A DNA stretch of 63,897 bases, the filler included, from Rhizaria sp. SCN 62-66 (Eukaryota), in assembly GCA_001724265.1 (NCBI GenBank). It is 3 parts of 3 records of this genome, joined end to end, with 100 filler letters (N's around TTAATTAATTAA, not from the genome) between each part and the next. Parts side by side here need not be neighbours in the genome. Positions count along the whole stretch, not along the records: positions 23,042 to 45,912 come from MEDY01000434.1; 2 more parts are not named here. One strand, written 5' to 3'. Of this stretch, positions 13,582-57,601 are shown one piece after another. Numbering within the stretch: position 1 is the stretch's first letter; each line of letters opens with the position of its first letter. The notes under the pieces are model-generated. The model did no database searches and was not told the DNA's origin. It worked only from the letters and a program-made list of their open reading frames with translations. Position numbers and translations under genes: made by a program.

Positions 13582-15497
13582 GGTGACGGTACGTTACTGT
13601 GTGACTGCAAGAACTGTGTGTGTAGCTGCGGAGAGCGTGTCGTGTTGCGCGTTATTCAAGTGGCGATGCTTTCTTGTCTGTCAGCTTGTGAAAAAACTAG
13701 ATAGATCACAGAAAGACGGAGAAAGTGGGTTGCGAAGAGTCAAGTTGAGCTAGGTAAGAAACAAGTGCTAGTGCGACCAGACTGAGCCTTGTTGTTGTGT
13801 TGAACTAAAGAGAGAGCGGGCGCAAAGGATGCGATGGCGACTGCTGCTGCGAGCGCTTGCTGCTGCCGGTAGAGCGTCCGTGCTTCGACTCAGACTCTAC
13901 ACGAAGGGCGTAGGTAAAAGTCAGAAGAACGGGGAGAGCGCGCGTGGTGCTGCTTGTCTCTGCTGTGAGGTGGAGCTGCTACGGGAAGCGAGCAGGGGCA
14001 CACAGCAAGAGCAACGCACGGGCGAAAAGGGGATACGAACCCACGCACGCGGCCGGAGTTTGCGCGCGAACGAAAGGGGCTGTGGGGATAGGACCAAGAC
14101 CAAGTGCGACGTGGCACAGGTGTCTGAACTGATGGGGAGGTTTTGGTGGAAAAGATAAAGATGGGGAAGCAGGAGGCGTTGTTAAGGGAAGGGGAGCGTT
14201 TGCAGAGCAGTGCACTGAGGTCAGAAACCACCGCACTGGAGGGCGGGGATCGTAACTGAAGCCAAACAACAAAATACCTAAGCGAAAAACAATTCGAAAC
14301 GCAGATAAATTTAAATATTTTGCGCAACAACGGTTCTCCTGGCTCACAACCGAGGGGGAAACACGAGCCGTCAACCCCCTTTCCTGTCGGTCGCAAATTA
14401 AGCCGCGCTTCGACCGGCCGAGTTCAGTCCACCGGCAAGGCTCGCGCGACCGCCATTCTCTCCAAAAGGGTGTAGGGCTGTTGAACGTCGTCAGATGCGT
14501 GTAGGATTTTGATGTGTGATATGAGGGTACCCATTACATTTGATTTCTAAAATTCATATGTAATGGATTTTGTTTCGTATGTCTAATCTCTTGTGGCGTA
14601 ATCGTTGCTTTGATTCGAGTGAAGTGCCTCGTTCGTCATGATGTTTCTGCGCGCTATCTTCGCAATACTTGCTGGGTTTTTGTATAAGAGTTGAGTATAT
14701 TACGCGATGTCACGGACTATATTGCATGTTTTAGCGCGATTTGATCTGACGTTTGTCTATGATGTGGTATCCGCTATACTGTCTCAGTTTTGAGGTGCAT
14801 TTAAGATCATTGAAAGCGAAAGTCCTAACTTTGATAACGCACTTAAATGACCTAACTAACAAATCACGTTAGATTATGTTTGTTAAGACTCTTTGACCTG
14901 CATTATATCATGGTTTTGTCGAAGTGTCTCTTGATCATATCGTGACTCACGGCTATTGATGGACACGCACTAACCTTCGTCAGCTGTCGCCAGAAGATAT
15001 GCACACTTCGCGACATTTCTAAGGTTTGTCCTTCTTCTATAGCATGAGCTGTTGTACTTAGTGCAGTAGATGACTTGTTTGCGCTCTTTTACATTGTTTT
15101 CATTCTATTGTATATCATTTAATGATGCAATGAGAAGTCCTCCTCTGAGCTTCCACCACCTTGATCATGCTTTAACAATCTGTTCATTGGGTATCTCACA
15201 TGTGCGCAGTTGTTCCGCATATTTCAGCTTCTTCGATCTCCTATGCAAGTTATCATATTGACTAAAATACTGATCTTCCAAACACTGTCCACCCTTGAAT
15301 ATTAGTTTCCAAGGCTCAATCGATGTTTGCCGCGCGCGAGCTTAAATCATAATAATAAGCATCAACAAAGACGAATCCACGATATGTTATATAAAATCTA
15401 CTATTATTTCACCCACCCAAGTTTCAAATAAAATAACGCAGATATAGCGACTCATATCCTTCGCTTAGTGAACAGGACCACATGCACTTGTTCCGGT

Positions 15498-15669: not shown

Positions 15670-16802
15670 ATGGCCGACACTTCTGGTCAGTATGACCACC
15701 TCTTTAAGGTACGTTCCTTGCCTTTCTCGCTCCTTCTCTCGATCCCTCTGTCACGCTTTCTCACCACGCCCCAGTAAAACAAACATTGCATTATTATCAT
15801 CATATAACAAGTTTTAATCTATCCCTGTTACGTTTCGCGTTATATTGCGTAATATCACGTCTCATCGCCCCTCTTTACGCTCGCGACGTCGCTCGTGCTC
15901 TTACGTGCTTCATTCCTCTGCACCACAACACAACGTGTCATATTGACTTGCACTCTTGCGTGTTTGCCGCTGACCGTCCCCGTGTGCTAACAGATTCTCG
16001 TTATTGGCGACGCTGGCACCGGCAAGTCCTGCCTCACGCGCTACTTCCTTCATCGCAAGTGTACGTGCCTATGACGAAGCCACTCATTGTACTCGATTAC
16101 GATCTCACTTAGTGCTTCTATACCCTATCGTTGAGAATAATTTTCAATATGCTCACTTGTTTCTATCTGCACATGCTTTTTCTCGTTTTTTCTTTGTTTT
16201 TTTCTCTCCGTTTTTTCTCGCTTTGCTGGAATCATCGCTTACTCTCGCCTGCTTTGCTCCATTCTCCATGCGCTCGCTGTACAGTCAAGGACAGCGCGCA
16301 GCCGACCGTGGGCGTGGACTTCGGCACCGCGATGCTGACCCTAGCCAAGAAGCAGGTCAAACTGCAGATCTGGGACATGGCGGGCCAGGAGCGTTTCCGC
16401 GCCGTCACGACGCAGTTCTTCCGCGGCGCCGCGGGCGGGCTTCTCGTGTACGACATCGCATCGCGCGAGAGCTTCTCACACATCGTGTCGTGGCTCACCG
16501 AGGCGCGCTCGCGCTCGCGGCCCGAGGCCGTGTTTGCGCTGGTGGGCGCCAAGTCCGACCTGGCGGGCGCGCGCGAAGTCCCCACGCTTGAGGCCGCTGC
16601 GTTCGCGCAAGACAACGACCTACTGTTCATCGAGTGCAGCGCGCGCACTGGCGACAATGTCGACGAGCTTTTCACCAAGCTTACCGCGGGCATCCTCCGC
16701 AAGGCCGCTAACGGGGGCGCCATGGACGAGACCAATAATGGCGCCGGCGACAGCGTCGACCTCTCAAAGCAGGACGAGGCCGCCGCCACCTGCAAGTGCT
16801 AA
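15670..16802 (+). CDS. Rab GTPase of the Rab4/Rab14/Rab2 group (most like Rab4); exons 15670-15708, 15994-16060, 16285-16802; 207 aa
   Basis: The spliced product reads MADTSGQYDHLFK|ILVIGDAGTGKSCLTRYFLHRKF|KDSAQPTVGVDFG...LQIWDMAGQERFRAVT...ECSARTG...CKC. Both introns are GTACGT...CAG. CxC prenylation motif at the C-terminus; TAA stop. Confidence 0.92.
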
Positions 16803-21621: not shown

Positions 21622-22559
21622 ATTGCTGCCGCCAAAGCGCGCAAAGGGCGTGCCGAGCGCGGCCCGCGCCGCCATTTGCTGCGGTGTCCCGCAATACCCC
21701 GCGCCGTGGCCGCCGCCGCCACTCAGCGCACTGTAGCTGTCGTAGCCGCTTCCGTCCGCGCTGGCGCTAGTCGAGCCGCCGCCGCCGCCACCGCTGAGGT
21801 TTGCCGACGACGAAGACGGGAGAGCGCGGGCCGTGGCGCGGTAGCTGTTGCTGCGGCCGTCGCCGGAGAGGCGTGCGGCGAGCGTCTGCGTGAGGCGCGC
21901 GTGCGTCTCCGACTGCGGCGGCGGTTCGATGCGGCCGGTCGTGGTGTGGTAGTAGTTGTTGTACACGGACGTGATCGTCGGCGCGGGGGCAAGCGGGGCC
22001 GCGCGGTACGTGTTGCGGCGCGCAAAGGAAGAGTTGAAGAGCTCGTTTTCGGCACGGACGCGCTCCTTCCAGCCGTTGCACTCGATGTTGGTGATGATGC
22101 TGCGGTCATTGAGGCTAACAGAGTCGCGCGCGCATAGAGCAAGAGAGAGAAACAAGAAGGAACGAAAAAACACAGGCAACACGTGACAATTACAGGTGAA
22201 CAGAGTTAGTTGCATTGGTAAAGATGTTGACCAATAGGCTGCGAGCGATAAGAGGGAGGAAAGCGCGAGTGCTCGGAGTGACAGAGCGCAGCTTTAGAGC
22301 CTTGCTATATTCGTCAGAGGAAGCGCAAGACGTACTAGTAGGTAGAAGCAAGCATCGGAGCAGCGCGAGGGGTGTAGCCGTAGTAGCTGTTGCTGTTGGC
22401 ATTCGCGTAGGAGTTCGAGCCCGAGGCAGCGGTAGTCGCGGATGCAGTAGCAGTAGAGACAGGAGCAGGGGCCGGGGCGGGAGCGCCAGCGTTGGAGGCG
22501 TTGCCGGCACTGGCAGCGGCGCCCGATGTCGGGGCTTGCTGGAACTGTGCAGAAGACAT
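21382..22559 (-). CDS. Hypothetical protein with a poly-Asn tract; exons 22559-22336, 22114-21382; 318 aa
   Basis: A GTACGT...TAG intron joins two GC3-rich frames in phase (TY-Y|LNDRSIITNIECNGWKERVRAENE). TGA stop. No family recognised. Confidence 0.7.
21556..21621. repeat. (GTT)22 microsatellite encoding poly-Asn on the minus strand
   Basis: Perfect trinucleotide run read directly from the sequence. Confidence 0.95.
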
Positions 22560-22941: not shown

Positions 22942-23041
22942 NNNNNNNNNNNNNNNNNNNNNNNNNNNNNNNNNNNNNNNNNNNNTTAATTAATTAANNN
23001 NNNNNNNNNNNNNNNNNNNNNNNNNNNNNNNNNNNNNNNNN
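22942..23041. other. Artificial contig spacer (44 N + TTAATTAATTAA + 44 N)
   Basis: Six-frame stop linker flanked by N runs; identical to the spacer at 45913-46012. Confidence 0.97.
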
Positions 23042-23043
23042 CC

Positions 23044-23136
23044 CCCGGCTCCAAGACTCGCCCCTTCGTCGAGTCCAAGGGCCGCAAGTTCGAGCGCGGA
23101 CGTGGTCGTCGCTCTTCCATGGGCTTCAAGGTCTAA
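23044..23136 (+). CDS. RPL18: C-terminal fragment of 60S ribosomal protein eL18, truncated by the contig edge
   Basis: PGSKTRPFVESKGRKFERGRGRRSSMGFKV* matches the conserved eL18 end (TKPYVRSKGRKFERARGRR). TAA stop. Missed by the ORF track. Confidence 0.9.
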   Translation, partial: PGSKTRPFVESKGRKFERGRGRRSSMGFKV

Positions 23137-26325: not shown

Positions 26326-29300
26326 CCAGAGAACCTGGTCTTCGACTCGAACTTCTCGCTTAAGGTCGTCGACTTCGGGCTCGCGGCCTGCGTCGCGGAC
26401 CGCCCCGCGGGATCGATTGAGCGCGAGCTGGCCGTGCTGCACTCGGGCGTCGGGTCCAAGCCCTACTCGGCACCCGAGGTCTCGTACACGCGCGAGATGT
26501 ACAACGCCTCGGGCTACAAGGGCTATCCGGCGGACCTGTGGTCCTGCGCCGTCGTGCTCTTCGTCATGCTCGCGGGCCGCCCGCCCTTCTACAAGCCGCT
26601 GCTCAAGACCTTCAACCCCAACATGGTCAAATGCAAGCACTTTGCGCGCATCCTTAAGGGACAGGTACGCTCGAAACAAAATACCTTAAGTTTTGGTAAG
26701 CTGTTATCTGTTTAATTTATGTGTCTTTGAACATATCTAACTTGTTGTTCCTCTTCTTCTGAATCGCTTTGATCTTTTGCTTGTTCCATCACCACAGGGC
26801 TACGAGGGCGTGACTCCGGTCGCGAAGGATCTGATCGCGAGCATCTTCAAGCTGAACCCCGACGAGCGCCTGACGATCCCGCAGATCCGCGCGCACCCGT
26901 GGCTGTGCGGGCCTGAGGCGCTGGCGCAGCAACAGGCGCTCACGCCCATGGCTCTGCTGCAGTGGATGGAGACCCGCGTGCGCGCGACTTGGGCCTCGAT
27001 GCGACGGCCGGACATGGGCCGCGTGCTGGACCAGGCCCGCCTGCTCGACAGCACTCGCGGGACGCCTGAGGGCGTGTCGCTGTGCCGCGGGCTCGCGCTG
27101 GCGGCGCGCGGCGTCGTCTACACGGCCATCGCCGAGACGGACATGACCGAGCTGTCCCTGGACCAGTCCAACGCCAGCGTCGCCGCCACAACTACCCCCG
27201 GCGCCGCCCCTGCCGCCGCCGCCGCCGCCGCGGGTGCTGCCCCCGCTGTCCTCACCGCGGCCCCCAGCACTGCGACTGCCCAGACCTCGGCTGCGGCCGC
27301 GACGGCGGCGGTCAAGCCGCCCGTGCCGGCCCCGGCCCAGCCCCAGGCCCAGTCCGGCGCCGGCGTGGGCGTCACTGTGCAGGCCCCGGTGCAGCCCGCG
27401 AAGCCTGCCATGTCGTGGCCGGCCATCGCGGCCGACTCGCCCACGGTCACCGGCAGCATCGGTCCCTCGGGCCGTTACCTGCCCATGCTGCCGCCCTCAG
27501 CCATGCCACCCTCCGCCGCCGCCGCCGCGGTCGGTAACCCCGCCGGCATTTCCGCGTTCGTCTCATCCGGGACGGGCCCCAGTGCGGGCCCCAGTGCGGG
27601 CGCGGGCGCGGGCGCGGGCGCGGGCTCCCTGCCGCCGCCCTCGGCTTCGACTGGCGCCGGCGTCGGCGCTTTCGCTCAAGCCCAGGCCCAAGCCCAAGCC
27701 CAGGCGCAGGCGCAGGCTCAGGCCCACGCTGCTTCTCAGCAGCAGCAGGGCTCTCGCTCGCTGTACACTCAGCAGCAACAGCAGGGCCAGCAGCAGCAGC
27801 AGCAGCAGCAGGGCCAGAGCGTCTTCGGCTCCGGCGGCTTCTCGGCTCATAGTAACGCCCCGGGGGCGGGCGCAGTCCGCCCCAGCGTGTTCCTCGGTCC
27901 CCCCGGCGGCGTGCTGATCCCCCCCATGTCGCTCTCTTCCACGCAACCCCGCTCCAACGCCCCTGCCGGCGCTGGCGCGGGCGCGGGCGCGGGCGCAGGC
28001 GCAGGCTCCGGAGGCGTCCCGGCCTCTCCGCTCCAGACCCGCTCCTCGGCCTCTGTCTCCGCCACTGGCGCCGGCTCTGGCTCTGCGGGGCCGCAGCAGT
28101 CGCCCCGCTCCCACCACCAGCAGCAGCAGCAGCAGCAGCAGGGCCAGCAGGCGATGGTCGACACGAGCGTGAGCAACAACAACAGCGCGGTCGGCGTGCT
28201 GCCGCCTCTGAACAACCGCCAGTCGCTGCCGCCGTCCTACTCGTTGTCTTTCTCCATGGCTACCCAGGGCCACCAGCTTGCGCCCGCCCCCGCTCAGGCC
28301 TCCGGCTCCGGCGCCGGCGCGATGGGCATGGGCATGGGCATGGGCGGCATGGGCGGTATGGCGATGGGGTCGAGCACGGCGGCCCCCGCGGCGCCGCTGT
28401 CGATGCCGCCCGCGCCGCTCTCGGCCTCGTCGTCGCCGCGCAACCGTGGCAACAGCGTCACCGGTGGCGGCGCCAGCGGTGAGGGTTCGATCCTCGCGCT
28501 GGGCGCGAAGCTGAGCATGCCGGGCAACATCGACCGCGATCACTCTGTCCCCGACGCGATGCTGGTCTCGGCCGGCGACGGCGACGCGGCGGCGCTGCAC
28601 TCGGCCACGGTGTCCCCGACGGGCGTGCTGCGCTCGCTCGACGCGCGCGCGGGGTCCGGCGCCGCGTCCCGCTCCGCCTCGGGTCATTACCTCCACCAGC
28701 AGCAGCAGCAACAACAATACCAGGGCCAGCAGCAGCAGCAGGGGCAGCAGCAGGGCATGGGCCAGGCGCAGTATGGCCACCAAGGCCGCGCCATGACCAC
28801 CGCGTCGCCCACGGCCACCCCGCGCGGCCTGACCTCCGCCGGCAGCGGCGGGCTCGGCGTGACGTCGCCCAACCCAGGCAACGTCTTCGCGCCTCCGCTG
28901 CCGCTGCCGCTGCCGCTGCCGCTGCCCATGCCCTCCAACTCCGGCTCCGGGTCCGGCGGCTCCATCTCCGTCAACCACAACAACAACAACAACAGCGGCA
29001 GCAACGGCTTGGCGCCGGCCTCGCTGTCGGGCTCGGGCAGTCTCAGCATCGGCAGCGGCAGCGGCAGCGTCAACGGCAGTGCACCGATGCTCATCCCGCC
29101 CCCCCGGACCGCCGCTGGCGGCAGCGCCTTCGCCCAGCAGGCCCAGCAGCAGCACACTCCGCACCACCACGGGCATCCGCAGCAGCACCCGCAGCAGCAG
29201 CGCGCGCTGGCTGCGACACCGCTGCAGACGCCCATGGTCGGCCCCTCGTCACCGGGTTGGGGGCCCCACACCTCGGGCTTCTCGCCCATGCCGTCGCCCG

Positions 29301-29545
29301 CCGTGTTCCCGCGTGCCGCCCACCTCCCGCCGCCAGTCATGGGGCTCAGCAACCAGCTCTTCAGTCTGGGCGGCGTCGGCAGTGTCGGCGCCAACGGCGG
29401 GGTGAGCCCGGGGATGCAGCTGCAGGGGGCGGCCAACGGCCACGGCCACGCGCAGGGACAGGGCCAGCAGATGTCCGGGTTGGGCTTCAGCCTTGGCGCA
29501 GCGCAGTACCAGCAGCAACAGCAACAGCAGCAGCAGTTCTTGCAG

Positions 29546-29577
<32 letters not shown>

Positions 29578-29608
29578 GCAGCAGAGGCAGATGAATGACG
29601 AGCGGTAA
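24637..29608 (+). CDS. Ser/Thr kinase of the CAMK group (SNF1/CIPK-like) with long Gln-rich disordered flanks; exons 24637-26664, 26798-29608; about 1612 aa
   Basis: Motifs LGIGTYGEV, VAVK, GGELF, HRDIKPEN, DFG, YSAPE, DLWSCAVVLFVMLAG and ERLTIPQIRAHPW. Phase-0 GTACGC...CAG intron; TAA stop. Confidence 0.92.
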
Positions 29609-30817: not shown

Positions 30818-33246
30818 TCAGAAGCACTCTGCGCGGATGCCCATGATGTGCGTATCGAGCTCCATCCCGACCTCCTCTGGCAGCGCGTCCTTAAGCACCT
30901 GCTCATGCGCGCGCACAAAGCGCACCAGCGGGGATGCCGCGCGCCGCAGCTCCTTGCAGCGCATGCCAAAGGCGACGTGGCCGCCCAGGTCCGCGGCCCG
31001 CTGCGCCGCCGTGGCCGCGGGTGCGAGCGCGGCCTTGTGCGCGGCGCGCAGGCGGCCGAACTCGACGCGGTACCGCGTCAGCGCGCCGAAGAGCGCGTCG
31101 AGCGCGCCGAAGTAGCTCTCGTCGGGGAACCCGTCGGCGCCCAGGGGAAGCGCCTCACGCGGGGGCAGCGCGCCGCCGGCGGGGTCCACCGCAGCGGCAC
31201 CAGTCACCGGCTGCAAGGGGAAGGAGAGCGCGGGCTGCAGCGCGTCCCGGCGGGACAGCCAAAGGTTCGCCAGGCGGGTGACAGAGGTCACGCGGCGCTG
31301 GGCAGCCTGGACGGCGGCGTCGTCGTTCGCAGCGTTGTTGCCGTTGCTATTGCCGTTGTTGTTGCCGTTGCTGTTGGCGGGGGACATGGTGGCTTTGTGA
31401 AGCTTCAGGGCGATCGACGCGCGGTGCGAAAGCATCTCGTTGCGGGGGCCGTCCTCGCCGCAGGAGACGCGGTCGATGAGCTGCAGGGTCTCGCGCAGCG
31501 TCTCCGCGGCCACGAGACTCCGGGCGCCGGCCTGGAGAAAACAACAAACAAGAGGATATAAAGCAGTAGTATGAGAATACAAAGCCAAGAAAATGACATA
31601 GACAATTGACAATGTAATAAAATCTATAATGCAAAATACCATCGCGATTTGAGCAAACTTAGAGAGATATACATTCAGAAGTCTACTTTTGCGCTCAAGT
31701 GCACACTGCAACGTGCAGCTCGTCTAGTAACAAAAGAGAATATTGTCATGTTTTGTTTTGAGACGGTAGCAGGTACGTACCACGACGCGCGCGAGCTCGA
31801 GCGGCGCGACGCATGTGTAGAGCGAGTGCCATTGGAACATGGACCGGAGCGGCATGCGCAGCCGCGCGGCCTTGAGCGCGTAGGGAATCGCCTCGTCGTT
31901 GAGCGAAAAGAGCCGGCGCAACTGCGCAGCGTGGAACCAAGCGTCGGCGCGGTCGGGGTCCAGCGCGGCGGCGCGCTCGTACCACTCGGCCGCGGGTTCA
32001 TACTTCTTGTACAGCCGCTCGTAGATCTCGCCCAGCTTGAGCAGCGTGAAGAAGTGTTCCTCCATGTTGCCGTCCTTGGTCCCGATGTCGGCGCGCCGCG
32101 TGAAGAAGCCCACGCTCTTCTCCAGCGCGGCCCAGTCAGCAGCCGTGGCCGCCGAGAGCTTCTCGCCGTGATTTGTGGCGTGGAGGAAGATCTCGTAGTG
32201 TGCGTAGCCCAAATAGTAGAGCGTGCGCGTGTCGTCGGGCAGCTCGGCCAGGTCCGCCTGCAGGAAGCCGATATAGCGCTCCGTCTTGCCAGGCGTGCGG
32301 TCCTGGTAGCCGCCAGTCTGCTCGGTCAAGTGCAGGTCCGTGAGCGTCTGGAAGACCTCCTGGTCGCGCAGCGGCGGCGCCTCGAGGATCTGGTGCGTGC
32401 GGCGCGTGACGTGCGCTCCGGGCAGGTTGCGGTAGATCCAGTCCATCTTGCGCTCGTTGGTGCGGCCGTCGGACCAAATGGTGAACATGTGCTTGGAGCA
32501 CCGCGTGTCAAGCTGCATCTTGTCGAACTGGGTGGGGTCGATCGGGGAGAAGTCGGCGTCCGAGATGAGCCCGTGTGTGCACTGGGGGAACTCTTTGACG
32601 CCAACCTGGACCAGCTCCGTCCACGTGGGACCCATGCCGTCGAACTTGACGGTCACCACGCGGCCCGGGATGTGGCCCAGGTGTTTGTGGATGATCTCCA
32701 CGGAGTCGTCGGTGTTGGCATCGTCGACGCCGATGACCCAGCAGTCGATGAGCTTGGCCCACTCGGGCAGCGTGCGCGAGAGGTGCTCGCGCTCGTTCTT
32801 GATCAGCATGTTCAACAGCAGCGTGCCGGGGGCGCTGCGCAGAGAGAAGTGTCGGGGCAAGAAGAGGGACACATGTGAGAAGTTTGCACAAGTGCAGAAT
32901 AAAACAGATATGTTCGGGTGATATACGACACGTGCGTCACTCATTTCTTCAATGAGTGCATGTAGCAAGCATAACATTGCTTTTACTGTTTGCGAACGTA
33001 CCGAGGTCCGGGCAGGTTGGCCGAGGGTGGCTCATAACCGGGAGGGTAGAACTTCGAGAAGTCGATGTTCCTGTTCTTGCTGTGCGCCACCGCGCCGTAG
33101 GGCAGCGCGCTGTCGCCGTCCGTCTCAGAGGCAACAGCAGCGGCAGCGGTGGTCGAGAGAGTGAGTGTGGCGAGGACGGAGAGGAGGAGGACAGCGGTCG
33201 CGAGCGCGAGCCGGGCCCGGGAGAGGCTGCGGCGGGAGCTCATCAT
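30818..33246 (-). CDS. GT-A fold glycosyltransferase (GT2-like) with TPR repeats and an N-terminal signal/anchor; exons 33246-33002, 32834-31781, 31531-30818; 670 aa
   Basis: Hydrophobic leader, then LNMLIKNE..L...VDDANTDDS and a DxD motif (ISDADF). TPR-like segments include RTLYYLGYAHY, LKLGEIYERL and AAALDPDRADAWF. Two in-phase GTACGT...CAG introns; TGA stop. Confidence 0.85.
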
Positions 33247-35886: not shown

Positions 35887-37471
35887 TTACTTGTCCTCGC
35901 CCTCGCCGGCCTCGGCGTCGCTGGTGAGGATGGCGTTGGCGGCCAGCGCAGCCGTGAGCTCCGCACTGAGCTTGGCCTCGAGCGCGGCCTTGGCGGCGAC
36001 GGCCTGCTCGCTCAGCTGGCCCTTGCCGGCTGCGGCGGCGGCAGCGGCCTCGGCGGCGGCATCCTGCTCGGCCTGCGCGCGCGCGGAGCGGGCCTGGAAT
36101 GCGGCGAGCGCGTGCTCAGTGGCCGCGGCCTCCTCCTTGACGGCGCGCGCCTCGGCATCGGCGCGCACCGAGTCGAAGTAGGGGTGCGCGAGCGCCTGTT
36201 TGGCCGTGAGGCGCTGCTGGTGGTCGAGCACAAGCACCTTGGACAGCAGGTCCAGCGCCTCGGGGCCCGCCAGCGCGCGGTTGGCGTCGGTCACGTACTT
36301 GGTCCACTTGCGCGGCGCCACCTCGGGGCCCAGCGCGGCGACCGCGGCCGCGGCGTCGGCGTCGACCTCGGCGCTGTACTTGGTCAGGTACGCCTTGTAC
36401 GCGTCCGTGCCGGCGAGCTTGACGATCTTGGCAAGCTGGTCGGCGTTGTCCTTGCCCTATTGTTGTTGTTGGAGTAAGAACAAAGTATAGCATAAAAGAG
36501 AGTATGATGAGCGTATATCCATATGTTAAGAAAAGAAAGCATGACATATGAACGAGGATGACACACTTGCACTGAATAATAACTTGAGGAGTCATAGCTC
36601 ATGGAGGTATCTGCAAGGTAGCGAATGAACTGCTTCGCTTGGGACGTACCTGCAGGAGGGGGTGGACGCGGAGGACCATCTCGGCCATGACACAGCCGAA
36701 GGACCAGAGGTCGAGCGAGTAGTCGTAGTCCTTCATACCAACGAGGAGCTCGGGACCCTTAAAGTAGCGCGACGCGACGCCGAGGTTGTACTCATGGCCG
36801 GGGTGGTAGAACTCGGCGAGCCCCCAGTCCACGAGCGACAGCACGCGGTTCTTCGGGTCAATCATCACGTTGTGCGGCTTGACGTCGCGGTGCATGACGC
36901 CGTTGCCGTGCGCGAAGTCAAGCGCGCGCAGCAGCTGGTACAGGTAGAAGCGGCAGTCGGTGTCGGTGAGCGTCGGGTACAGCGTCTTGAAGTCGACAGA
37001 GTCGGTGTGGTTCAGCACGAGGCACACCGTCTTGGAGACAGAGTCGCGGACAACGTCGCGCAGCTGCGCCACGTTGGCGCCGCCGCGGATGCGCTCCAGG
37101 ATCTTGATCTCGCGCTGGATCTTGAGCTTCTTGACGGGCTTGAGAACCTTGATGACGACGGCGTCGGATGAGGGCTCATGGACGCCCGCGAAGACCTCGG
37201 AGTACTTGCCGCGGCCAATCTTGCCCGTAACGGCGTAGTCGTCCATGGGCGACCAGAGCGGCTCGAAGCTCTCGTAGTCCCACATGCCGGCGTTGGCGGC
37301 CGTGTTGACGTCGGCGTAGACGCGCGACTGCGACGCGTTCTTGCTCGACGGGCGGGCGAAGAGCGCGCGCGCGGGGGCAGAGAGCACAGAAGCGGGAGAA
37401 GAGCGCAGCAGGGGGAAGGGCATGGGCGCGCCGCGGGCGGCCTGCACCAGCCGGTTGGCCGAGCGAAGCAT
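35887..37471 (-). CDS. Casein kinase II alpha-like catalytic subunit with an N-terminal presequence; exons 37471-36650, 36456-35887; 463 aa
   Basis: Motifs [57 protein letters not shown] and GKDNADQL...[13 protein letters not shown]. Phase-0 GTACGT...TAG intron; TAA stop. Confidence 0.93.
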
Positions 37472-38174
37472 CAGCCGGAACGGGAAAGGGAAAGGGGCCG
37501 AAGGCGAAGTGGTAGGAGTGGAGGCTTACGAGTACGCGGGAGGGTGCTAGCGAGGGCTCCCGGTTAACGTAGACCTAGAAAACAAGTGGGCATGATAGAA
37601 CACGAATGGGTTAAAAATGAGGCAATGGTTTGAAGCGCATCAGTGAGCGTTGCACATCTTGCACACGTTGCAACTGAAACAGGCTGGGTCCTGCGGGAAA
37701 TACCCTAACGGCCGCACTCGATAAGTCATACGCAGATGCATCGACTGCGAATAGCGATTTTCTCAGCATATCCACAAGCTACACGGTATGAACCATATCA
37801 TATTAAATAATCATAATCACACACAACCACCTTGACCTCCAGCAGCCCGCATGAACATGTCGCCACAGCCCACACCGAGCGGCTTTATTTCGGGGTGCGT
37901 AGCCCTTTTTAACGAACCGACCATCTGAACATACAACGCCCGCTCTGAGTCAAGAACAGGTCTGATGACATATCACAGTCGGCCCTGACCTACGAACTTC
38001 GTTCCAGAGAATGCTATAGTTAAATATCAACTAATTAAGTGAGATTTATCACTATATGTCGTTATTATTGACTTTAACGATCAATTAATGGCACTAGATG
38101 CGCTTGAAGCTCAAAACGGGCCGCTCACCACAAATTTTCCTCTTAGCACTCCCATACGCCCGTAGCCGGCTTAG

Positions 38175-39878
38175 ATGGAGGCTGCCGTCCGCGTCTCCGC
38201 TCTTCCTGACGAGGAGCGCTTTGTTGCTTTTAGCGCGCTTGCCGAGCAGTTCATCCTGGCCTCTGACGCGGCGTCGCTGCGCGCCCTCGCTACCCACTTG
38301 CTGACGGTGGAGATCAACAACTCCTTCTCGCGTAACTGCATCCTCAACGAGCTCATCGTCGACATCTGCAGCAAGGTCAAGGACTCGGACGAGAAACTCG
38401 ACGCAAACCTTGACCTGGAAGACGCCGTCGACTTTGCCCGCGCCGTCGCCGCCGCGCTGCACCCCTTAAACGCAGAGTTCCCCGAAGCTTTCTTCGCGGC
38501 GGCCGACTTGCTCTCGGCCGCGCTCCAGGGGCTCGAGCGCTGGCGCGACGCCGCTGACGCTAAGGCCGACTACGCCTTCCCCGTGGACACCTCTGTGCCG
38601 CCCATCGAGCGGCTGGAGTGGGCCCTGGACGCTGCTGGCTTCTACCTCAAGAGCGCCCCCGAGCCCACACTCCCTGCAACTGCAAACGCCAACTCGACCA
38701 CAAACTCATCTCAAGCGAGCTCTGTTTCGCCGGCCGCGCGCTCCGCGTCCACCCGCGCGGCATCCTCCGCGTTCTCGATTCTGGCCCAGCGCGCGACGCC
38801 GCTGCTGAGGACGGTCCACGCCGCGTCCGCTGCCGCCGCCGCCGCCGCCGCCAAAGCGCCAGTCAACACGCCCGCACACATCAAGGCCTCGGCCGCGGCG
38901 GCCGCACTCTCTGCTAAGTCCGTCGCCGCATAGCATCGGCTTGATCTCTACTTTGCGCAGGCTGCCGAGCGGCTGGAGCGCCCCGCCGACGCCGCAGACC
39001 GGTACTTGTCCGTGTTCTCGCGGCTCCAGGGTCCTCAGTCCGCGGCCGTGGGGCTCGGCGCTGCGACTGCCGCGGGCGCGCGCGCCGCGCTGGCTGCGGC
39101 CGCGGTCAACGCGCTCGCCACGCCCGTGGGGCCCCGGCGCGCGCGCGTGCTGGAGGCCGTTGTGCGCGCGCAGGGCTGGGAGAGTTTGCCAGCGTCTACC
39201 TTGCTCCTCCGCACCACCAATACCAGCGCTAGTACCGTCGCAAGCTCTAGCGCCAGCGCGGGCTTTGCGGGTGGGTTCATCACTGAGCGTGAGCTCACCG
39301 TGCTCGAGTTGACCCCCGGGCTGCCGCTGGGGCTCTGCTTCGCGTCTGCTAACAATAACAGCAGCAGCAGCAGCAGCAGTAACAGCAGTAGTTCTAGCGT
39401 CACCAGCGGCGACGACACCGCCGGTCTGCTGCGGCGCGCCTCTCGCGAACACAACGTGTGCGTCGCGGCGCAGCTGTTTACCACCGCGTCGCTCGCGCGC
39501 CTCGCCACCCACCTGCTCGGCCTCGGCGCGAGTGCGGTGAACGCGGGCAGCGGCGCTGCGAACAACGGCGGCGGAGCTAGCAGTGCTGCCGCGACCGCGA
39601 CGGCCGCGTTGATCGCGGACCTGGTCTCCCGCGGCGCCGTCTCCGCGCGCCTGGACGAGGCCGCTGGCTTCGTCCGTTTTCCCGTGCTGCCCCCCGCGGC
39701 CGCGGCGCCCGTCGCCGGCGCAGAAGGGCTCGAGAAGGGTTCTTCCTCCAGCGGCGCTGAGCAAAGCACCGCCATGCATGCTGAGAGGGTCAATGTCGTG
39801 CAGAAGTGGCGCGAGGGGCTCGGCGCGCTGTGCGAAGAGGTTGATGAGGTTCTGGCGCTTGCGCTTACCGCTGTGTGA
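38175..39878 (+). CDS. Divergent PCI-domain protein resembling COP9 signalosome subunit 4; one 567-codon frame with an internal TAG at 38931-38933
   Basis: The track ORFs 38175-38933 and 39006-39878 are in the same frame, separated only by one TAG. CSN4-like motifs: AADRYL, ATPVGPRRARVL, LRRASREHNVCVAAQLF, ALIADLVSRGAVSARLDEAAGFVRF, KWREGLGALCEEVDEV. TGA stop. Confidence 0.75.
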
Positions 39879-40206: not shown

Positions 40207-41342
40207 TCACACTGTCACGGGCTGGTCGAACCCCTCATCATCATACGAATGATGCTGCTGCTGCTGACCGTTGCCATTGTGCTGCTGCTGTAGTTGCTGC
40301 CGACTGCGACTGAGGCTTTGGTTGTTGTTGTGGTCGTCAACAAAGCCTTCGTTGTCGTAGCCATCGTTGTCATACGCAACAGCACCGTGGCCGTGATCGT
40401 TCTCATAGCCGTCATCGTCGTAGTTGTCATAACTGCTGTGCTGCTGCTGTTGCTGTTGCTGCTGCGGCTGCTGCTGACTCTGATGTTGCTGCGGCTGCTG
40501 TGTCACCCGCTTCTGAGGCGTCTGCTGCGGAGTGCGCCGCTGCTGCGGCGGCGCCTGCGACTATGGACGGCGCGCACTATCACTCTCACCGTGACTATTG
40601 CTGCCTCCGGCGCTAGCGTTGTTGCCGTTCTCCTGGTCCTGGAGCGCGGCCTGGAGAAACTGGATCTTTTTCTCCAGCGCAGCCTCCCTGTCGCGCAGCA
40701 GCGCCTCCTCCGCCTTGGCCTGCGCCGTCTTGACCGCGACCGCCTTCCGCTCGCGCTCCTTCTGTCGCATCACGCGCAACAGCTCCTGCTCGCGGCGCAT
40801 GACGTCGCCCAGCCCCGCGCCGACCAGCGCGCGGCCCGCGCGGCGCGTCTCGGCCCGCTCCACGCGCGCGCGCTCGTTCTCCTCGGCCGCCACCAGCGCC
40901 TCACGCGCGCGCCGCTGGCTCGCCTCGGTCTGCTCGCGCACGCGCCGCTGCGTCTCGGCTAACGCCTCCGCGCGCGCGCGCTCCGCCTCGGCCGTGCGCG
41001 CCGCCGTCACGTCCGCGCGCCGCTGCGCCACCTCCAGGTCGTGGGCCTCCTTGCGGCGGCGCGTCTCCTCACCGCGGCGCTCGGCGTCGTCGGCCTGGCG
41101 CCGCGCCGTGTCCGCGCGCTGCAACTCGCGCTCGGCGATGCGCTGGCTCGCGAGGTCGTCTTTGGCACGCACCTGCGTGTGCTTGAACAGGGCCAGCTTG
41201 GCCTCGAGCAGCAGGCGTCGCTGCAGGTGCTTCGGCCGGCCCTGAACGGTGTCGCGGCGCAGCCAGACCGAGTTCGGCTCGGGGGGCTGAACCTGGCTCA
41301 GCCGCTGGCTCTGGCTCAGCTGCTGCTGTGACTGAATGTTGT

Positions 41343-41375
<33 letters not shown>

Positions 41376-42542
41376 CCCCGTCAGCGCTGGCGTGGCTGCC
41401 GTCAGTGAACGCGTCGTCGTTGTAGTCACCGTTGTCCGCAGCCTCAGCGCTGTGAGGCTGCGACTGTTGTTGAGACTGATGCTGCGCGGGCTGGCGGCCA
41501 CTGCTGCCGCCGGTGTTGACCGTTGCAGCACGACTGCCACCGCGGCTGCTGCTGCTACCGCTGCCGTGGTTACCCGCCTTGTCGCTGCCGTTGCCGCTGC
41601 CGCTCGAGTCAGCGCCAGCAGTGATCGAAGCAGCCTTATCAAGCGGCGCGCGGTACAAGCGCTCCCAGGGGCCCTGGACCTGCCCTTGATGATTCTGACT
41701 CTGACTCTGGTTCTTGTTGCTAGTGTGTCGGGCGCTCTCACTGCCGTTGCGTCCAGAGCTGTAGCTGCGGCTGTAGCTGTAGCCGTACGCGCTGCTCGTC
41801 ACAGGTGCAGTGCGGCCGCCGCCGGACATCAGCTGCTGTTGTTGCTGCTGCAAGCTCCCCTGCTGCTGCGCCGCCGAGAGTGACTGCGCATGTTGTTGCT
41901 GCGGTTGCTGCGAATGCGGCGCGGGCTGCTGCGGCGGCATGGCGGCGAGCCCCCAGGCCTTGGTCGACGCGTACGGCGACTTGTACCCGGGCTGGTCGGG
42001 GCGCGTTGCGCGATACGGCGCCACGCACGCTGCCGCGGACGTGAAGGCCTTGGAGGCGTCGGAGCGCGGGGGCGCCTCGTGCTGTCTACGCTCTCGCTCG
42101 TGGTAGGCTGCGTACTCGTCATGGTGCAGCTGGCGGCGCGCGCGCACTTCCTCGTCCTCGCTGTCCTCGCCGTCGCCGTAGTAATCGCCGCGGTAGCAGT
42201 CAGCTTCACCGTTCTCGTGCTCGTGCTCGCCGTGGCCGTTGTTGCCGTGCGCGGCGCCAGCGGAAGCAGCGCCAGCAGCAGCGTCAGCATTGGTATTCTC
42301 AACATGCTGGGCCGTGGGCGAGCCCACCGCAGCCACCGAGTGATCCGCCGAGTGTTCGGGGGCCACGGCGGCGACCGACGCGCTCTTGTGCAGTTGCGCA
42401 CGGCTCTGACGCTGGCTCTGCGGCTGGCTGTAGGGCTCGTTAAGGTTGTGCAGTCGCGCCTGGCTCTGGTACTGGCTCGGTGACCGATCCGGATCGTCCC
42501 CGTACATGCTTTCGTTGTAGCTGTCGTCGCGGCTGTCGTAGC

Positions 42543-42583
<41 letters not shown>

Positions 42584-43606
42584 AGATGCTGCTTGTTGTT
42601 ACTGTTGCGGTCGACAGGACGGTCGTCGACGTCGCCGTGCAGGTTGGCGCAGGGGTCGTGGGGCTTTTGACCGCCGGTGTTCCGCCGCTGTTGCTGCTGC
42701 TGCGGGTCGCGGTCTCGGTCGCCGTTGCGGGACTTGGAAGAAGGTAAGCCGCCGGGGGCCGTGCTCGCGAACTGCTGCTCACGCTGCTGTTGTTGCTGTT
42801 GCTGTTGCTGACGAGACTTAAGCTTTTGACCACGCTGCTGTTGCTGCTGTTGTTGCTGCTGGGACTGGCGGTGTGCGGGCGGCAGCGACGACGGCACAGA
42901 GCCGTCGCCCTCATGCCCCTGCCCCTGCTCCTGTCCCTGTGGCTGACCCTGACCGTGCTCCTGACTGTGGCCCTGTTCGTGCTCGTGCTCGTCGCTGTGC
43001 CGCGACGAATGCGACTGCTGCTGAGACTGCGCCTGTGCCTTGTTCCCGCTGGACGACGCCGTGGCATTGCGCAGCACGCGCGCGTACACCTTGTTCACCG
43101 CGGGCAAGTCCTGCCGGAGCCCCTCAGCCTCCTCGAGCTCGCTCTTGTGGATCTCTGCCAGCGCCTGCGACCGCGCCAGCAGCAGCTGTCCCTTGCGCTC
43201 GCCCGCGTCGCGCCGGAGCGCCTCCCTGCGCAAGAACTCATCCTCGCGCGCGCGCCGCTGATCCTCCTCCTGCTCCTCGCGGGCCCGCCGCGCCGCAGCC
43301 TGGCGTCGCTCGCGCTCGCGCCGCTCCTGCTGGCTGCGCTCGGCTGTGAGCGCGCGCGCCTCGGCCACACTCGCGTCCCCGGCGCGCGCGCGGGCCTCGA
43401 CCTCGGCGCGGCGCGCCTCGCGGTCCTCGCTGTGCGCCTGCAGGTTCGCCGCGACGCGCTGCAGCAGCCGCTCGCGCGCGGGCGAGCCGGGGCGCGCGGG
43501 CGAGCAGTGCCCGTCGCCGTAGTGGCCGTCGTCGTCGTAGTCAGAGTACTCGTTGTTGCTGTGGTGGCTGCCGCCGGTGCTGTTAAACGACCGCTGCTGC
43601 TGCTGC

Positions 43607-43643
<37 letters not shown>

Positions 43644-45291
43644 GAGAGTGCCCTCCGTTATGGTAGCCGGTGCTGCGGGCGGAGAGAGCGCCGGAGCGCG
43701 CACGCGACTGCGGGGCACTGCTGAACCCACTCTGAGTCTGAGCCTGACTGTGCCCCTGCCCCTGCTGCCCCTGTTGCGGCTGCTGTTGCTGGTGGTTTTG
43801 CTGCACTTTGCGCATGCGCGCGCGCTCCTTGTCGACCTCTGCCCAGCGGCGGCGCACGAGCAACTCGCGGTCGTCGGCCAGCCGCGCCATGAGCGCGTCG
43901 ACCGTAGCCAGCGCTTCGGCGTGCGAACGCTGCCGCTGTCGGAGCGCCTCCGCGGCCGCGGCGTACTCGTCCTCCTCCTTGGCGAGCTGCTCGCTGTACA
44001 TCGACGCAACGGCCGCAGACTGCGCGGACAGGTCGTCACTGCGGGCCGCCACGGCGGCGTTGTGCGCCGCGATGGCGTCCTTCTCCTCCGCCAGCTTGGC
44101 CAGCTCGGCCGCGGCGACGGGGTGGGTGCTGTCGCCGCCGCAGCCGTTGCCGCTGCCGCCGGAGGGGCGGGACGCGGGGCGCCCGCGCGCGCTGGGTTTA
44201 TCTTTATCGCGACTGGGTTCTGGGTTGTTGCCGTTGGGCTTATTGCTGGTGTCGTCTTCGTAGTGTTCGTTAGCGTATTCGTCGTCGCCGTCAGCGGCGG
44301 CGTCGCCGCGACTGCCGTTGCTGGCCTCTGCGTTGATGCTCGACTGCGTGGCGCCCGCGTCCGCGCTGTTGTGCGCGCGAGTGCCGTTGTTGTTATCGTT
44401 AACAGCAGGCGAAGGGTGAGTGCGCGCCAACTGGGCTTGAACTTGCGACTGAGACTGAGAGCGTTGCTGTTGCCTCGCAGGTTGTTGCTGCTGTTGCTGC
44501 TGTTGCTGCTGCTGTTGCTGCTGTTGGGGTCGGGGCTGTTGTGGCGGCCGCGGCTTCTGCTGTTGCTGCTGCTGCTGCGGCTCTGACTGTTGTTGCTGGT
44601 TGCTGCCAGTCACAGACCGCTGCGCATGTCTCGGAGTCTGTTTGGGCGTCTGCGACGGAGACGCGTGCGGCGGCGGCGACTGAGCCCGCGACTGTGCCTG
44701 CAACCGCGCCTGCAACTGCGAGCCCTGCGGCGGGGGCGACGGGGACCGAGTGCGCGTGCTGCCAGCGGCGGTGGCGGCGGCGACGCGCGACGGCGACGGC
44801 GACCGCTGTTGCTTGTTAGAGCTCCGCGAGGGGGACACGGAGCGGTGGCCAACCTTGGGCGACGGAGACGGAGACCGGGAGCGCGACTGCGGCTCGGGGG
44901 ATCTCGACCCGCGCGCGGGCGCCGCTGGCGCAGCAGCAGCGTTGGACGCTGTAGCAGTGCGCGTGTTACCGGGCGTTCTCGTCGCGGACGCTGCTGCTGC
45001 CTCGCGCTCGCGCAGCAACATCTCGGGGCTCGACGCGCGCGTGGCGTGGCCGCTGGCGCTGTAGTCCATGTCTTCCGCACCGCCAGACTCGACCACGGTC
45101 TCCAGCACGGCGCGGCGCGGGTCGTGCCAGGCCTCGCGGTCGTCGCCCGCGGACGGCGCTCCCTCGGGGCTGCCGCTCTGGCCGGCGCGGTCGTCGGGGG
45201 AGCCGGCGTGGGCCTGGGACGGCGCGGAGGCGTCGGGACCGGCGTCGGGGGACGCGGGGTTACCCGCTGGAACGGAGGCAGAGCCACCCAT
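40207..45291 (-). CDS. About 1694-aa Gln-rich coiled-coil protein with a possible N-myristoylation motif; internal TAG at 40563-40561
   Basis: Starts MGGSAS (MGxxxS) and has three E/R/A-rich helical blocks. The frame continues 117 codons past the TAG with the same Q/H/D/Y composition (SQAPPQQRR...YDDDGYEND) to TGA at 40209-40207. Confidence 0.8.
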
Positions 45292-45749
45292 AAACGTAGA
45301 GAGACGGGCGGCCCAACTGTGGGGGGAAAAGCAAGCGGAGGAGCGAAGGTTTCACGCGTGGGATCGAGAACGCAAGAATCTTCGGAGTAGACAAGAAAAT
45401 AAAAAGTTTTAAGAATTATTGTGAGATGCACGAATACAAAACACCTCGACTTATCCGTAACTCCGTTCAAAACACATATCAACGTCTATTTACGCTCTAA
45501 AAATGAGTAACAAGTCACATGAACACCGTCCGTTTCTCACTGCTCTGCACACTGTGGCTCTGTCTGCTCCGGACCGACTCGCAGGTCAGGCTACGCCTTG
45601 ACGACGTTTATACAGTGCGCGCGGCGTAGTTTGACATTTTAGATGTTATAAAGAGTTGATTCATGTGTTGTATAAGTTAAGACTGATGTGTGGATAGATG
45701 AATGGCTGAAGCTTTGTATTCCCAGAACGACCTACATAATACGGGAAAT

Positions 45750-45912: not shown

Positions 45913-46012
45913 NNNNNNNNNNNNNNNNNNNNNNNNNNNNNNNNNNNNNNNNNNNNTTAATTAATTAANNNNNNNNNNNNNNNNNNNNNNNNNNNNNNNN
46001 NNNNNNNNNNNN
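45913..46012. other. Artificial contig spacer (44 N + TTAATTAATTAA + 44 N)
   Basis: Same structure as 22942-23041. Confidence 0.97.
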
Positions 46013-55600: not shown

Positions 55601-57601
55601 GGTGGAAACGGCGTTGGCAGCGGGAGCTTAGGCGCGTTTTCTTTCTTCGCGCCGAGCCCGAGCCCGGCGAGCGCTACTGGAAACGCGAGCGCGGCTGCGA
55701 GCTCGGCTGCGAGCGCGAGCGGTGCCGCGACGCCGCTGCCCCTCGGCGCGGGCTCCAGCCGGCGCACGAGCCACGCGGCCGACGCGGCCGACGCGCTGCT
55801 GCGCGCGCTGGCGCTGCGCAAGGGGCTCGCGGGCCTGGCGGCCCTCGCGCACACCGCCGCGGACGGCGGCGCAGACGGCGGTGCAGACAGGGACGGGGAC
55901 ATGGACAGGGACAGTCAGAGCGCGAGTGTGAGTGCGAGCGTGCGCGAGGCGGCGCGCGCGGCGGCGCGGGCGGGGTTCCTGTACGTCGTCTCGGTGGTGC
56001 CCGGCTCGGCGGCTGCGCTGGGCGCAGCCAACAACGGGACCGTGGCCGGCCACGGCTACGACAGCGACGACTGTTACGAGGACGACGAGGACGACGGCGA
56101 CGACTACTACGCCGACAGCGACGGCGACGCGCTTGACTATGACGATGATGAGGAGCACAACTACGACATTGATCATGACGGCTTTGGCTACAATGATGAC
56201 GCCAACGACAACGATTACGACGGCGCAAGCTTCGGCGACATCGACACCGGTCCGCAAAGTCAAGGTGGCAGCTACAGCAAGAGCACTAGAGCCGGCGACT
56301 TCGACGGCGACGCCGACAACGCCAACTCGAACATCTCGAACATCTACAACGCTAACTCGCTCTCGCACAATGCGGGAGCAAGTGCGAGCACCAGTGCGAG
56401 CGACGCGGCGACCGTGGCGGAGCTACTGCGGGCCGTTGCGGCCGCGGAGACGACGGTAGCCGCCGCGCCCAGCGCCGCCGCCGCGGCCGCCGCGAGCGCG
56501 GCCGTTGCGGCGGCGTCGGCCGCGCTGGCGGCGCTGCCGCTCTCGCGCCAGGGGCTGCGGCCCGGAGACGTGGTGCTCAAGTTCGGCCGCCTGCGCGCGG
56601 GCGCGGGCCCCGGCGCGTGCGCGCACGGCGGCGACGGCGGCGACTTGTGCGGCTGCGTGCTGCGCTACGGCGGCGACTGGCGCGCTGTCGCAGGCTACGT
56701 CCGCGACCGGCCCGGCGTCGCCTTCGACATCGTGGTACGCGACGACAGCGAGCTGTGCGCAATATATCTTGTATATTGCCTTCGTTGACTTCACATATGT
56801 GAGTATATTTCAATCTTTTTCTTTATTTCGGTGTTGTTGATCCCCAATATGATCTGCTCATATCTTCGTCTCACTCGTCGCACTCGCTTACAACACTGTC
56901 TTGTCCCCACCCCTGTATTGCGCACGTAGCTGCTCCGCTATGCGCGGCCGCCGCCCTCGCTGGCTCAGCTGCTGTCGCAACCGTTAGAGCCGCAGACAGC
57001 CTCGGCCTCGCGCCGCTCGAGCCGTAGTCACGGCCAGCAGCAGCCGCAGCAGCAGCAGCAGTCTCGACAGTCTCGCGGCAGCGGCAGCGGCAGCGGCAGC
57101 GGCAGCGGCGGCGGCAGTGGCAGCGGCGGCGTTGACGCTGCGGCCGCCGGAGCGCGCCCCTTCTCCCGCTCGCGCTCGCGCTCAGGCTCGCGCTCAGGCT
57201 CAGGCTTAGGCTCAGGCTCCGGCGCGCGCGCGCAGCACGAGAGCAGTCACGCACGCAGCAATCATGCTCGCAGCGGCCACGCTCGCAGCGGCGGGGGCGG
57301 CGGCGGAGGCGGCGCGGCGTGGGCGCGGGCGGTGCGCGTGCGCGTGACGCCGCTGCGGTCCGCGTCGACGAGCTACGCGACAGCCGCGGCGGCGCGCGCG
57401 GGCGAGCCCTGCGACCCGAGTCCCGCGGCCGCGGCGCCGGGCGCGAGGCACGCGGGCGCGGCGGGCGCGCTGGGCTGCGTGCTCGCGGACTGGCCGCCCG
57501 CGCGCAAGACCGTCGACCTCATCGTGCAGTCCGTGCCAACCGCCGGGAGCGCGGCGGGCACGACCACCTCCATTTCTCAGCAATAGACGCCCCGGTTCTG
57601 A
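52625..57601 (+). CDS. Large low-complexity protein ending in a fragmented PSMD9/Nas2-type PDZ domain; exons 52625-56734, 56930-57601; internal TAG at 57584-57586
   Basis: PDZ pieces in the expected order: FLYVVSVVPGSAA, GLRPGDVVLKFG, AFDIV|LLR, VRVRVTP, GALGCVL. Phase-0 GTACGC...TAG intron. Ends SQQ(TAG)TPRF then TGA; under the standard code it would end at 57586. Confidence 0.7.
54375..54441 (+). repeat. 18-bp tandem repeat (CTGCTCACGGTCATCACC) x3.7 encoding AHGHHP units
   Basis: Three perfect copies plus a partial copy, read directly. Confidence 0.9.

Follow-up and report, generated by a model that had tools for sequence, protein, structure and literature searches.

An in-frame TAG within a CSN4 homologue of the uncultured eukaryote Rhizaria sp. 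SCN 62-66, and the possible translation of UAG

Does UAG always stop translation in the eukaryote deposited as Rhizaria sp. SCN 62-66? The question is raised by one gene in a 63,897-nucleotide stretch of its assembly (GenBank GCA_001724265.1; the whole stretch is called the window below). This gene is a single-exon homologue of CSN4, subunit 4 of the COP9 signalosome, with an in-frame TAG at codon 253. An earlier note, made from the sequence alone, had drawn attention to a TAG in mid-gene at 38931-38933 with 314 intact codons behind it, and open reading frame (ORF) calls agree on both points: 252 codons precede the triplet, and the 314 that follow stay open up to the TGA at 39876-39878. The peptide quoted in the note, KSVAA-TAG-HRLDLYFAQAAERLERPADAADRYL, also matches the translation of the frame. 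As argued below, the triplet itself is real, and most likely it is translated, not terminating, within a functional gene. That the organism translates UAG, at least inside genes, is a claim we hold in even balance; from DNA sequence we infer both the decoding of UAG by the ribosome and its validity across the genome.

Two halves of one CSN4 gene

After the CSN4 TAG, the next in-frame stop lies 314 codons further on, as against 1 to 53 codons after the 20 terminal stops modelled in the window. An open frame is by itself weak evidence in such GC-rich DNA, as is illustrated by a 407-codon antisense ORF that overlaps the same gene, and the argument therefore has to be carried by homology. An exhaustive phmmer search of 1.8 billion representative proteins with the read-through product returned 12 proteins at an expectation value (E) of 0.001 or less. 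Two of them are split halves of the same gene, and the remainder are proteins of about 360 to 450 residues, plus one 142-residue fragment. The closest relative, P0003, matched with E 6.9e-55 and 46% identity, and P0004 with E 2.4e-21; the post-TAG half alone, compared with P0003 by BLASTP, gave E 6e-21. Word-indexed protein searches with the whole read-through protein and with residues 1-170 yielded no matches. Since the exhaustive search did find relatives, these blanks are put down to low-complexity words, which probably swamped the index.

A phmmer search of the Protein Data Bank (PDB) with the single protein gave a chance-level match alone (E 0.66), and a profile was required to go further. 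Profile A1, built from the CSN4 protein and nine relatives, matched CSN4 chains in the PDB with E 4.4e-83 (range to 1.5e-82), and the paralogous proteasome lid subunit RPN5/PSMD12 with E 1.9e-29. To avoid circularity, a second profile, A3, was made from the nine relatives without the protein itself (427 columns). Aligned to A3 with hhalign, the pre-TAG ORF covers columns 9-179 with E 1.7e-29. The post-TAG ORF covers columns 204-408 with E 9.1e-15, and its match starts from residue 2 of this ORF. The check proposed in the earlier note, a profile alignment of the read-through protein to CSN4 and PCI families, thus gives colinear matches for both halves. Judged by these two values and by their order along the profile, the homology to CSN4 is not a chance effect, and because columns 9-179 and 204-408 are matched in sequence, we conclude from the alignment that both ORFs belong to one CSN4 gene, as its colinear halves. 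Twelve columns are invariant among the protein and all nine relatives, and nine of these lie after the TAG (A273 to C553).

Direct domain searches were less telling. On the protein alone, Pfam PF01399 (PCI) scores 13-15 bits against a cut-off of 22 bits, so that the PCI assignment rests on the profile and fold matches. PF22241, the N-terminal type of PSMD12 and CSN4, gives no match on the protein itself at E≤1. Among 10 relatives scanned, PCI was found in 9 at E≤0.01 (8 above cut-off), PF22241 in 4 at the same threshold (2 above cut-off), and the CSN4/RPN5/eIF3a helix-turn-helix in 3.

The predicted structure points the same way. An AlphaFold model of the read-through protein has a mean predicted local distance difference test (pLDDT) of 76 and a predicted template modelling score of 0.73. 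Codon 253 falls within a helix spanning residues 233-266, and residues 251-260 have a mean pLDDT of 93. When this model was submitted to Foldseek, ranks 1 to 8 were all CSN4 chains, and proteasome lid chains appeared from rank 9; the protein is closer to CSN4 than to RPN5/PSMD12. With human and plant CSN4 (PDB 4d0p, 4d10_D, 6r6h_D, 9is6_D) it shares a common architecture of N-terminal helical repeats, PCI winged helix and C-terminal helix, with a template modelling score of 0.81 normalised to 4d0p. It differs from them in sequence (13-15% identity), in length (567 residues against about 400), and in the in-frame TAG, which sets the window gene apart. The extra length consists of low-complexity insertions rich in Ala, Ser, Asn and Gly, with pLDDT below 50 (residues 165-180, 352-365, 388-415, 454-466 and 506-535). 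It is, in short, a divergent CSN4 that carries long insertions of low complexity. The earlier suggestion of a CSN4-like gene whose TAG stands upstream of the PCI domain is therefore supported by profile, PDB and fold matches alike. So is its corollary that stopping there deletes this domain: the PCI half would be lost. That half would also be without a restart ATG, since the first methionine after the TAG comes about 30 residues from the C-terminus.

Public protein collections list the gene as two 'proteins'. One, from 38175-38933, is known as P0013 or P0002 (252 or 251 residues); the other, P0001, from 39012-39878, is a 288-residue product beginning at an internal GTG. This split is an annotation artefact, due to gene callers taking the TAG as a stop.

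Which residue would fit at codon 253? The earlier note had placed the TAG at a glutamine of CSN4. This holds for human CSN4 (the second Q, in 6r6h_D and 4d10_D), but the column is variable: it is N in 9is6_D, L in P0003, R in P0004, W in P0010, and different again in other relatives. As codon 253 is the single informative site and its column varies, the amino acid inserted at UAG cannot be inferred from it.

The triplet itself is well attested. The window is found at least partly in 14 of the 16 sequencing runs listed, which come from 9 studies and include bioreactor and wastewater metagenomes. In run X3, from another study, contig record 4 covers 38142-39345 without any difference to the window, and the 1246-base metagenome contig L001 equals 38142-39387 with no mismatch. 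The T at 38931, which the earlier note had thought worth verifying, is thus backed by both, together with the A and the G. The exact 252-residue product, P0013, has been recorded from 6 contigs, and P0002, a variant shorter by one alanine, terminates at the same TAG. Given these concordant records, the CSN4 TAG is not an assembly error. A metagenome scan for further sequence of the organism or its relatives returned L001 alone, a copy of the same locus, and a scan of prokaryotic genome contigs and viral contigs gave no match to the locus.

Runs X4, X5 and X9 carry a second haplotype, with a few substitutions and a 3-nucleotide insertion (sites 39479, 39492, 40219, 40252, 40647 and 40747). By codon positions read by hand, the indel preserves the frame, and three of the haplotype's five substitutions are silent. 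The strain differences in the stretches behind the two TAGs are a synonymous change at 39479, a Leu-to-Phe change at 39492 that relatives show too, a synonymous change at 40219 and the 3-nucleotide indel at 40252. The sampled strains are near-identical, with few differences over 5.7 kb.

Gene ends, introns and a second internal TAG

The window is made up of GC-rich coding blocks with AT-rich spacers between them, and its organism is an uncultured, GC-rich, intron-poor eukaryote. Models of 20 gene ends were built on codon-score segments, Pfam matches and G+C content (GC), RNA support being available for one intron. The terminal stops comprise 10 TAA, 9 TGA and a single TAG, that of gene g17. 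At the 19 TAA and TGA stops the base following the triplet (+4) is always a purine (15 G, 4 A), and in 18 of the 19 the GC over 150 nucleotides drops to 0.33-0.51 after the stop, the exception being that of Coq4. In effect, four nucleotides, TRA-R, signal termination. At the CSN4 TAG there is no such fall in GC (0.76 to 0.73).

To find comparable sites, all stops in six frames were scored by the codon usage of their flanks, at least 40 open codons being required on each side. Three stops had coding-like flanks: the CSN4 TAG, a TAG at 40561-40563 on the minus strand, and a TGA at 28540 on the same strand. The last was set aside, as it probably lies in a shadow frame on the strand opposite a 955-codon ORF (26741..29608). 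A stricter scan with 20 to 30 codons revealed no further credible internal stop. A TAG at 31724-31726 (minus strand), where two ORFs touch, considered as a third case, was rejected as well, the stretch being an AT-rich intron with a GTACGT donor (Table 1).

The second TAG belongs to g13, a neighbouring gene with no Pfam family. There, the 80-codon coding score is 0.27 before the TAG and 0.51 after it, compared with a mean of 0.51 (standard deviation 0.22) in known coding windows; GC goes from 0.64 to 0.63, again without a fall, and 117 codons are open beyond. In run X9, a polyA RNA library, contig record 29 runs unspliced across 40499-40688, and therefore over this TAG. The same record carries the variant at 40647 yet keeps the TAG, which is thus common to two haplotypes. 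A word-indexed search for relatives of the C-terminal 400 residues of g13 found none, and here too low-complexity words probably swamped the index. An acidic and aromatic motif that seemed, by eye, to recur in the 117-codon extension and in the rest of the protein was dropped, as BLASTP detected no significant repeat between the two (best E 3.3). The evidence for this second TAG is statistical, without homology. Both internal TAGs differ from the terminators in their +4 base (C and T), in GC and in the number of open codons that follow (314 and 117).

The TAG of g17 looks, by its context, like a working terminator. It is followed by A, GC falls steeply behind it (Table 1), and beyond it come four codons (ACG CCC CGG TTC) and a TGA at 57599-57601. 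This TGA is followed by T and would be the sole stop there with T at +4, unlike the other 19.

Five introns were measured in the window. All have a GTACG donor and a YAG acceptor, with lengths of 133-249 nucleotides and GC of 0.35-0.45; the introns of this organism are few and AT-rich, and their donor is unusually uniform. The window itself consists of three contig pieces, joined by artificial linkers at 22942-23041 and 45913-46012 (44 N, TTAATTAATTAA, 44 N), and genes are cut at the joins, as in a short ORF ending in TAA-G at 23134-23136. The three pieces are treated here as one organism because the GTACG donor is common to all of them.

Two further observations concern the first piece. ARAGORN makes a single call in the window, a 95-nucleotide tRNA-Thr(CGT) at 21851-21945 on the plus strand, within a minus-strand coding region. 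It is probably a false call, as no tRNA in the window reaches the gathering score of Rfam. A 752-codon single-exon gene at 11335-13593 (minus strand) combines a P2X receptor domain with EF-hand pairs; in the protein atlas, the clusters nearest to it occur most often in Chlorophyta and giant viruses, which can serve as leads. Coq4 pointed to no particular lineage there.

Table 1. Positions of the features discussed, counted along the whole window
Feature	Position	Strand	Remarks
CSN4 (COP9 signalosome subunit 4) homologue, single exon	38175..39878	+	567 codons if TAG read through; ends in TGA-A, 39876-39878
Pre-TAG ORF	38175..38930	+	252 codons from ATG 38175; CSN4 N-terminal helical repeats
In-frame TAG, codon 253	38931..38933	+	GCA TAG CAT; +4 = C
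Post-TAG ORF	38934..39875	+	314 codons; last helical repeats, PCI/winged-helix domain, C-terminal helix
PCI domain core, residues 419-502 of read-through protein	39429..39680	+	Pfam PF01399, E 0.028-0.091
Gene g13, neighbouring and convergent	40207..45351	-	Q/A/S-rich; 1596-codon frame, TAG, 117 codons, TGA-G
Second in-frame TAG	40561..40563	-	CCA TAG TCG; +4 = T; 1.6 kb from CSN4 TAG
TAG at end of gene g17 (52520..)	57584..57586	+	CAA TAG ACG; +4 = A; GC 0.77 to 0.35
Intron, CK2-alpha	36457-36649	-	193 nucleotides, GT..AG; spliced contig of run X5 joins 36455 to 36649
Intron	31532-31780	-	AT-rich, GTACGT donor
Intron	26665-26797	+	predicted
Intron	16061-16284	+	predicted
Intron, gene g17	56735-56929	+	predicted

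Translation of UAG and its alternatives

If UAG is translated in this organism, a UAA or UGA with a purine behind it would end translation, and UAG would be read through. The cause would be either reassignment of the codon or a suppressor tRNA that competes successfully with release where an internal UAG precedes a pyrimidine. Under full reassignment, the TAG of g17 would be a relic and its protein would be extended by four residues. In a context-dependent variant, UAG would be sense when a pyrimidine follows or when it lies far from the 3′ end, and a stop otherwise. Such a sense/stop rule would rest on three sites, which allow no choice between full and context-dependent reassignment. A more specific proposal is that of an early or ambiguous stage, in which internal UAG with a pyrimidine is translated, gene-end UAG with a purine still terminates, and sense UAGs are just appearing; we consider this unlikely, though worth stating.

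Several points weigh against translation of UAG. Internal TAGs number two among some 14,400 scored codons, a density far below that of known UAG-sense lineages, and homology backs one of the two, g13 having neither relatives nor domains. Gene g17 seems to end at TAG-A with a normal drop in GC, so that UAG probably still terminates somewhere. No tRNA with anticodon CUA was found within the window, where Rfam gives no match at all. A distance of 1.6 kb separates the two TAGs, which share one 23-kb piece, an arrangement that local decay could equally well produce, and the gene models behind the counts are derived from codon scores, Pfam and GC, with RNA backing for one intron. The scarcity of sense TAGs is less odd given that the A/T-rich codons TTA and CTA are likewise rare (9 and 14 occurrences in 14441 codons).

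Some of these facts lend themselves to an ordinary explanation, in which the standard code applies, a nonsense mutation has made the CSN4 gene a null allele or a young pseudogene, and the g13 TAG is a second truncation in a tolerant low-complexity tail. The terminator-like UAG of g17, with its next stop four codons on, fits this account, as do the low count of internal TAGs and their position on the same piece. A C-to-T change from CAG to TAG would be the likeliest nonsense change, since CAG is the commonest glutamine codon (699 in 14441 codons). The intact downstream frame is no proof of selection, because chance alone can keep GC-rich frames open, the antisense ORF over CSN4 being an example, and with strains near-identical over 5.7 kb the mutation could be young. 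Against this, two premature stops are needed among some 20 genes, both of them TAG, and neither is private to one haplotype: P0002 ends at the CSN4 TAG, and the X9 record keeps that of g13. Moreover CSN4 has suffered no frameshift or second stop, the nine family-invariant residues after its TAG are retained, and the few strain differences behind the two TAGs are synonymous, a Leu-to-Phe change as seen in relatives, or a 3-nucleotide indel. We regard nonsense alleles as the strongest of the alternatives, though a rather doubtful one. Removal of the TAG from the mRNA by an atypical, short and GC-rich intron appears very improbable. GT..AG pairs that would excise it in frame do exist. The earlier note had seen one, of 39 nucleotides (38922-38960, donor GTCGCC); this candidate is there, but it is not the sole rescue, as 137 pairs that leave the frame open were counted within 450 nucleotides on each side. 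A 72-nucleotide candidate (38862-38933, GTCAAC..CATAG) is compatible with homology, since it takes 24 codons that are mostly an insertion relative to P0003, and for that reason an intron is retained as a minor rival. Besides, 38931 lies outside the listed contig pieces of runs X4, X5 and X9, of which X5 and X9 are RNA or possibly RNA: these pieces end at 38661/38672 and restart at 38956/39394. No joint over 38922-38960 appears among them, a negative of no weight where coverage is missing. However, the 137 pairs use 9 donors, none of which begins with GTA, and those listed (up to 450 nucleotides) have GC of 0.56-0.77, quite unlike the introns measured here. The note's remark that its 39-nucleotide candidate did not resemble introns of the window holds. 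That candidate would also remove residues aligned with a conserved R-x-x-x-x-[YF]-A-[RQ] block (before Y-A-R-V). The structural model has a continuous, confident helix over residues 233-266, and the second TAG is spanned unspliced in the polyA RNA library. On sequence grounds, no credible intron lies over the CSN4 TAG.

Could both TAGs be stops that leak under an ordinary code? Near-cognate tRNAs would then read UAG-C and UAG-U at a low rate, and most of the protein would be truncated. The context invites this, as each of the internal TAGs is preceded by an A (-1) and followed by a pyrimidine (+4), compared with a purine at +4 in 19 of 19 TAA and TGA terminators. According to PMC4615788, no element of the context influences readthrough more than the +4 base, A at -1 or -2 is stimulating, and basal UAG readthrough in mammalian cells amounts to 1-2%. 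At this basal rate a core subunit would be almost absent, and a stoichiometric complex would be starved of it. Other features of the two sites also speak against leakage: local RNA structure is no more stable than that of shuffled sequence at either TAG (z 0.85 for CSN4, 0.20 for the second). The strong readthrough motifs known are UAG-CARYYA and UGA-CUAG. Both are absent here, the sequences being UAG CAU CGG and UAG UCG CAG, and we consider site-specific leaky termination improbable. Editing of the mRNA, for instance A-to-I editing that gives UGG from UAG, known from filamentous ascomycetes in their sexual stage, deserves very little credence. The CSN4 UAG does sit in an 8-nucleotide loop of the minimum-energy fold, and P0010 has a tryptophan in the aligned column. 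But shuffled sequences fold just as well, part of the second UAG is base-paired, the precedent is confined to ascomycetes, and nothing places the organism among these. Finally, the X9 record shows the triplet at 40561-40563 without an A-to-G change, with the reservation that minority variants are lost in contigs.

Comparison with known variant codes

If UAG is translated, the predicted proteomes of this organism are wrong wherever TAG occurs, and the change would have arisen independently in a GC-rich, non-ciliate environmental eukaryote. If on the other hand the TAG is a nonsense allele, the finding is an ordinary one. A search of the literature on variant codes in activated-sludge protists retrieved nothing relevant. 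Nuclear code changes limited to UAG first became known in 2017, and the lineages that have them are still few (PMC5304391, PMC11687900). The combination of few sense UAGs with a probable leftover UAG terminator could show the first steps of a stop-codon reassignment. Should the early-stage reading be true, the organism would represent a natural intermediate of the kind postulated by theories of codon reassignment and rarely observed.

Two classes of known systems are relevant. In the first, UAG alone is reassigned while UAA and UGA are kept as stops, as described in PMC5304391 and PMC11687900. The rhizarian exLh uses UAG for Leu, with 384 occurrences in 71 genes, and never as a terminator, and in Iotanema spirale UAG encodes Gln and accounts for about 8% of Gln codons (both PMC5304391); phyllopharyngean ciliates read it as Leu or Gln (PMC11687900). 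As in exLh, Iotanema and the phyllopharyngeans, UAG is the only stop triplet found inside genes here, and 19 of the 20 genes modelled terminate at UAA or UGA. Unlike in exLh and Iotanema, internal UAGs are sparse, at 2 per ~14,400 codons, and one gene probably ends at UAG. The second class comprises codes in which a codon is stop or sense depending on position or context, reported for Condylostoma, Parduczia, karyorelict ciliates and Blastocrithidia in PMC4967479, 10.1101/2022.04.12.488043 and PMC12153298. If the TAG of g17 does terminate, the window would resemble these in using UAG as sense inside genes and as a stop at the gene end, the internal TAGs having C or T at +4, and the terminal one an A beside an AT-rich 3′ flank. 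It would differ in that two or all three stops are reported to be ambiguous in those organisms, often serving as sense codons, whereas here UAG alone is concerned, and rarely. The UAG anomaly of this window thus resembles the UAG-only reassignments, a likeness that does not establish membership in either class.

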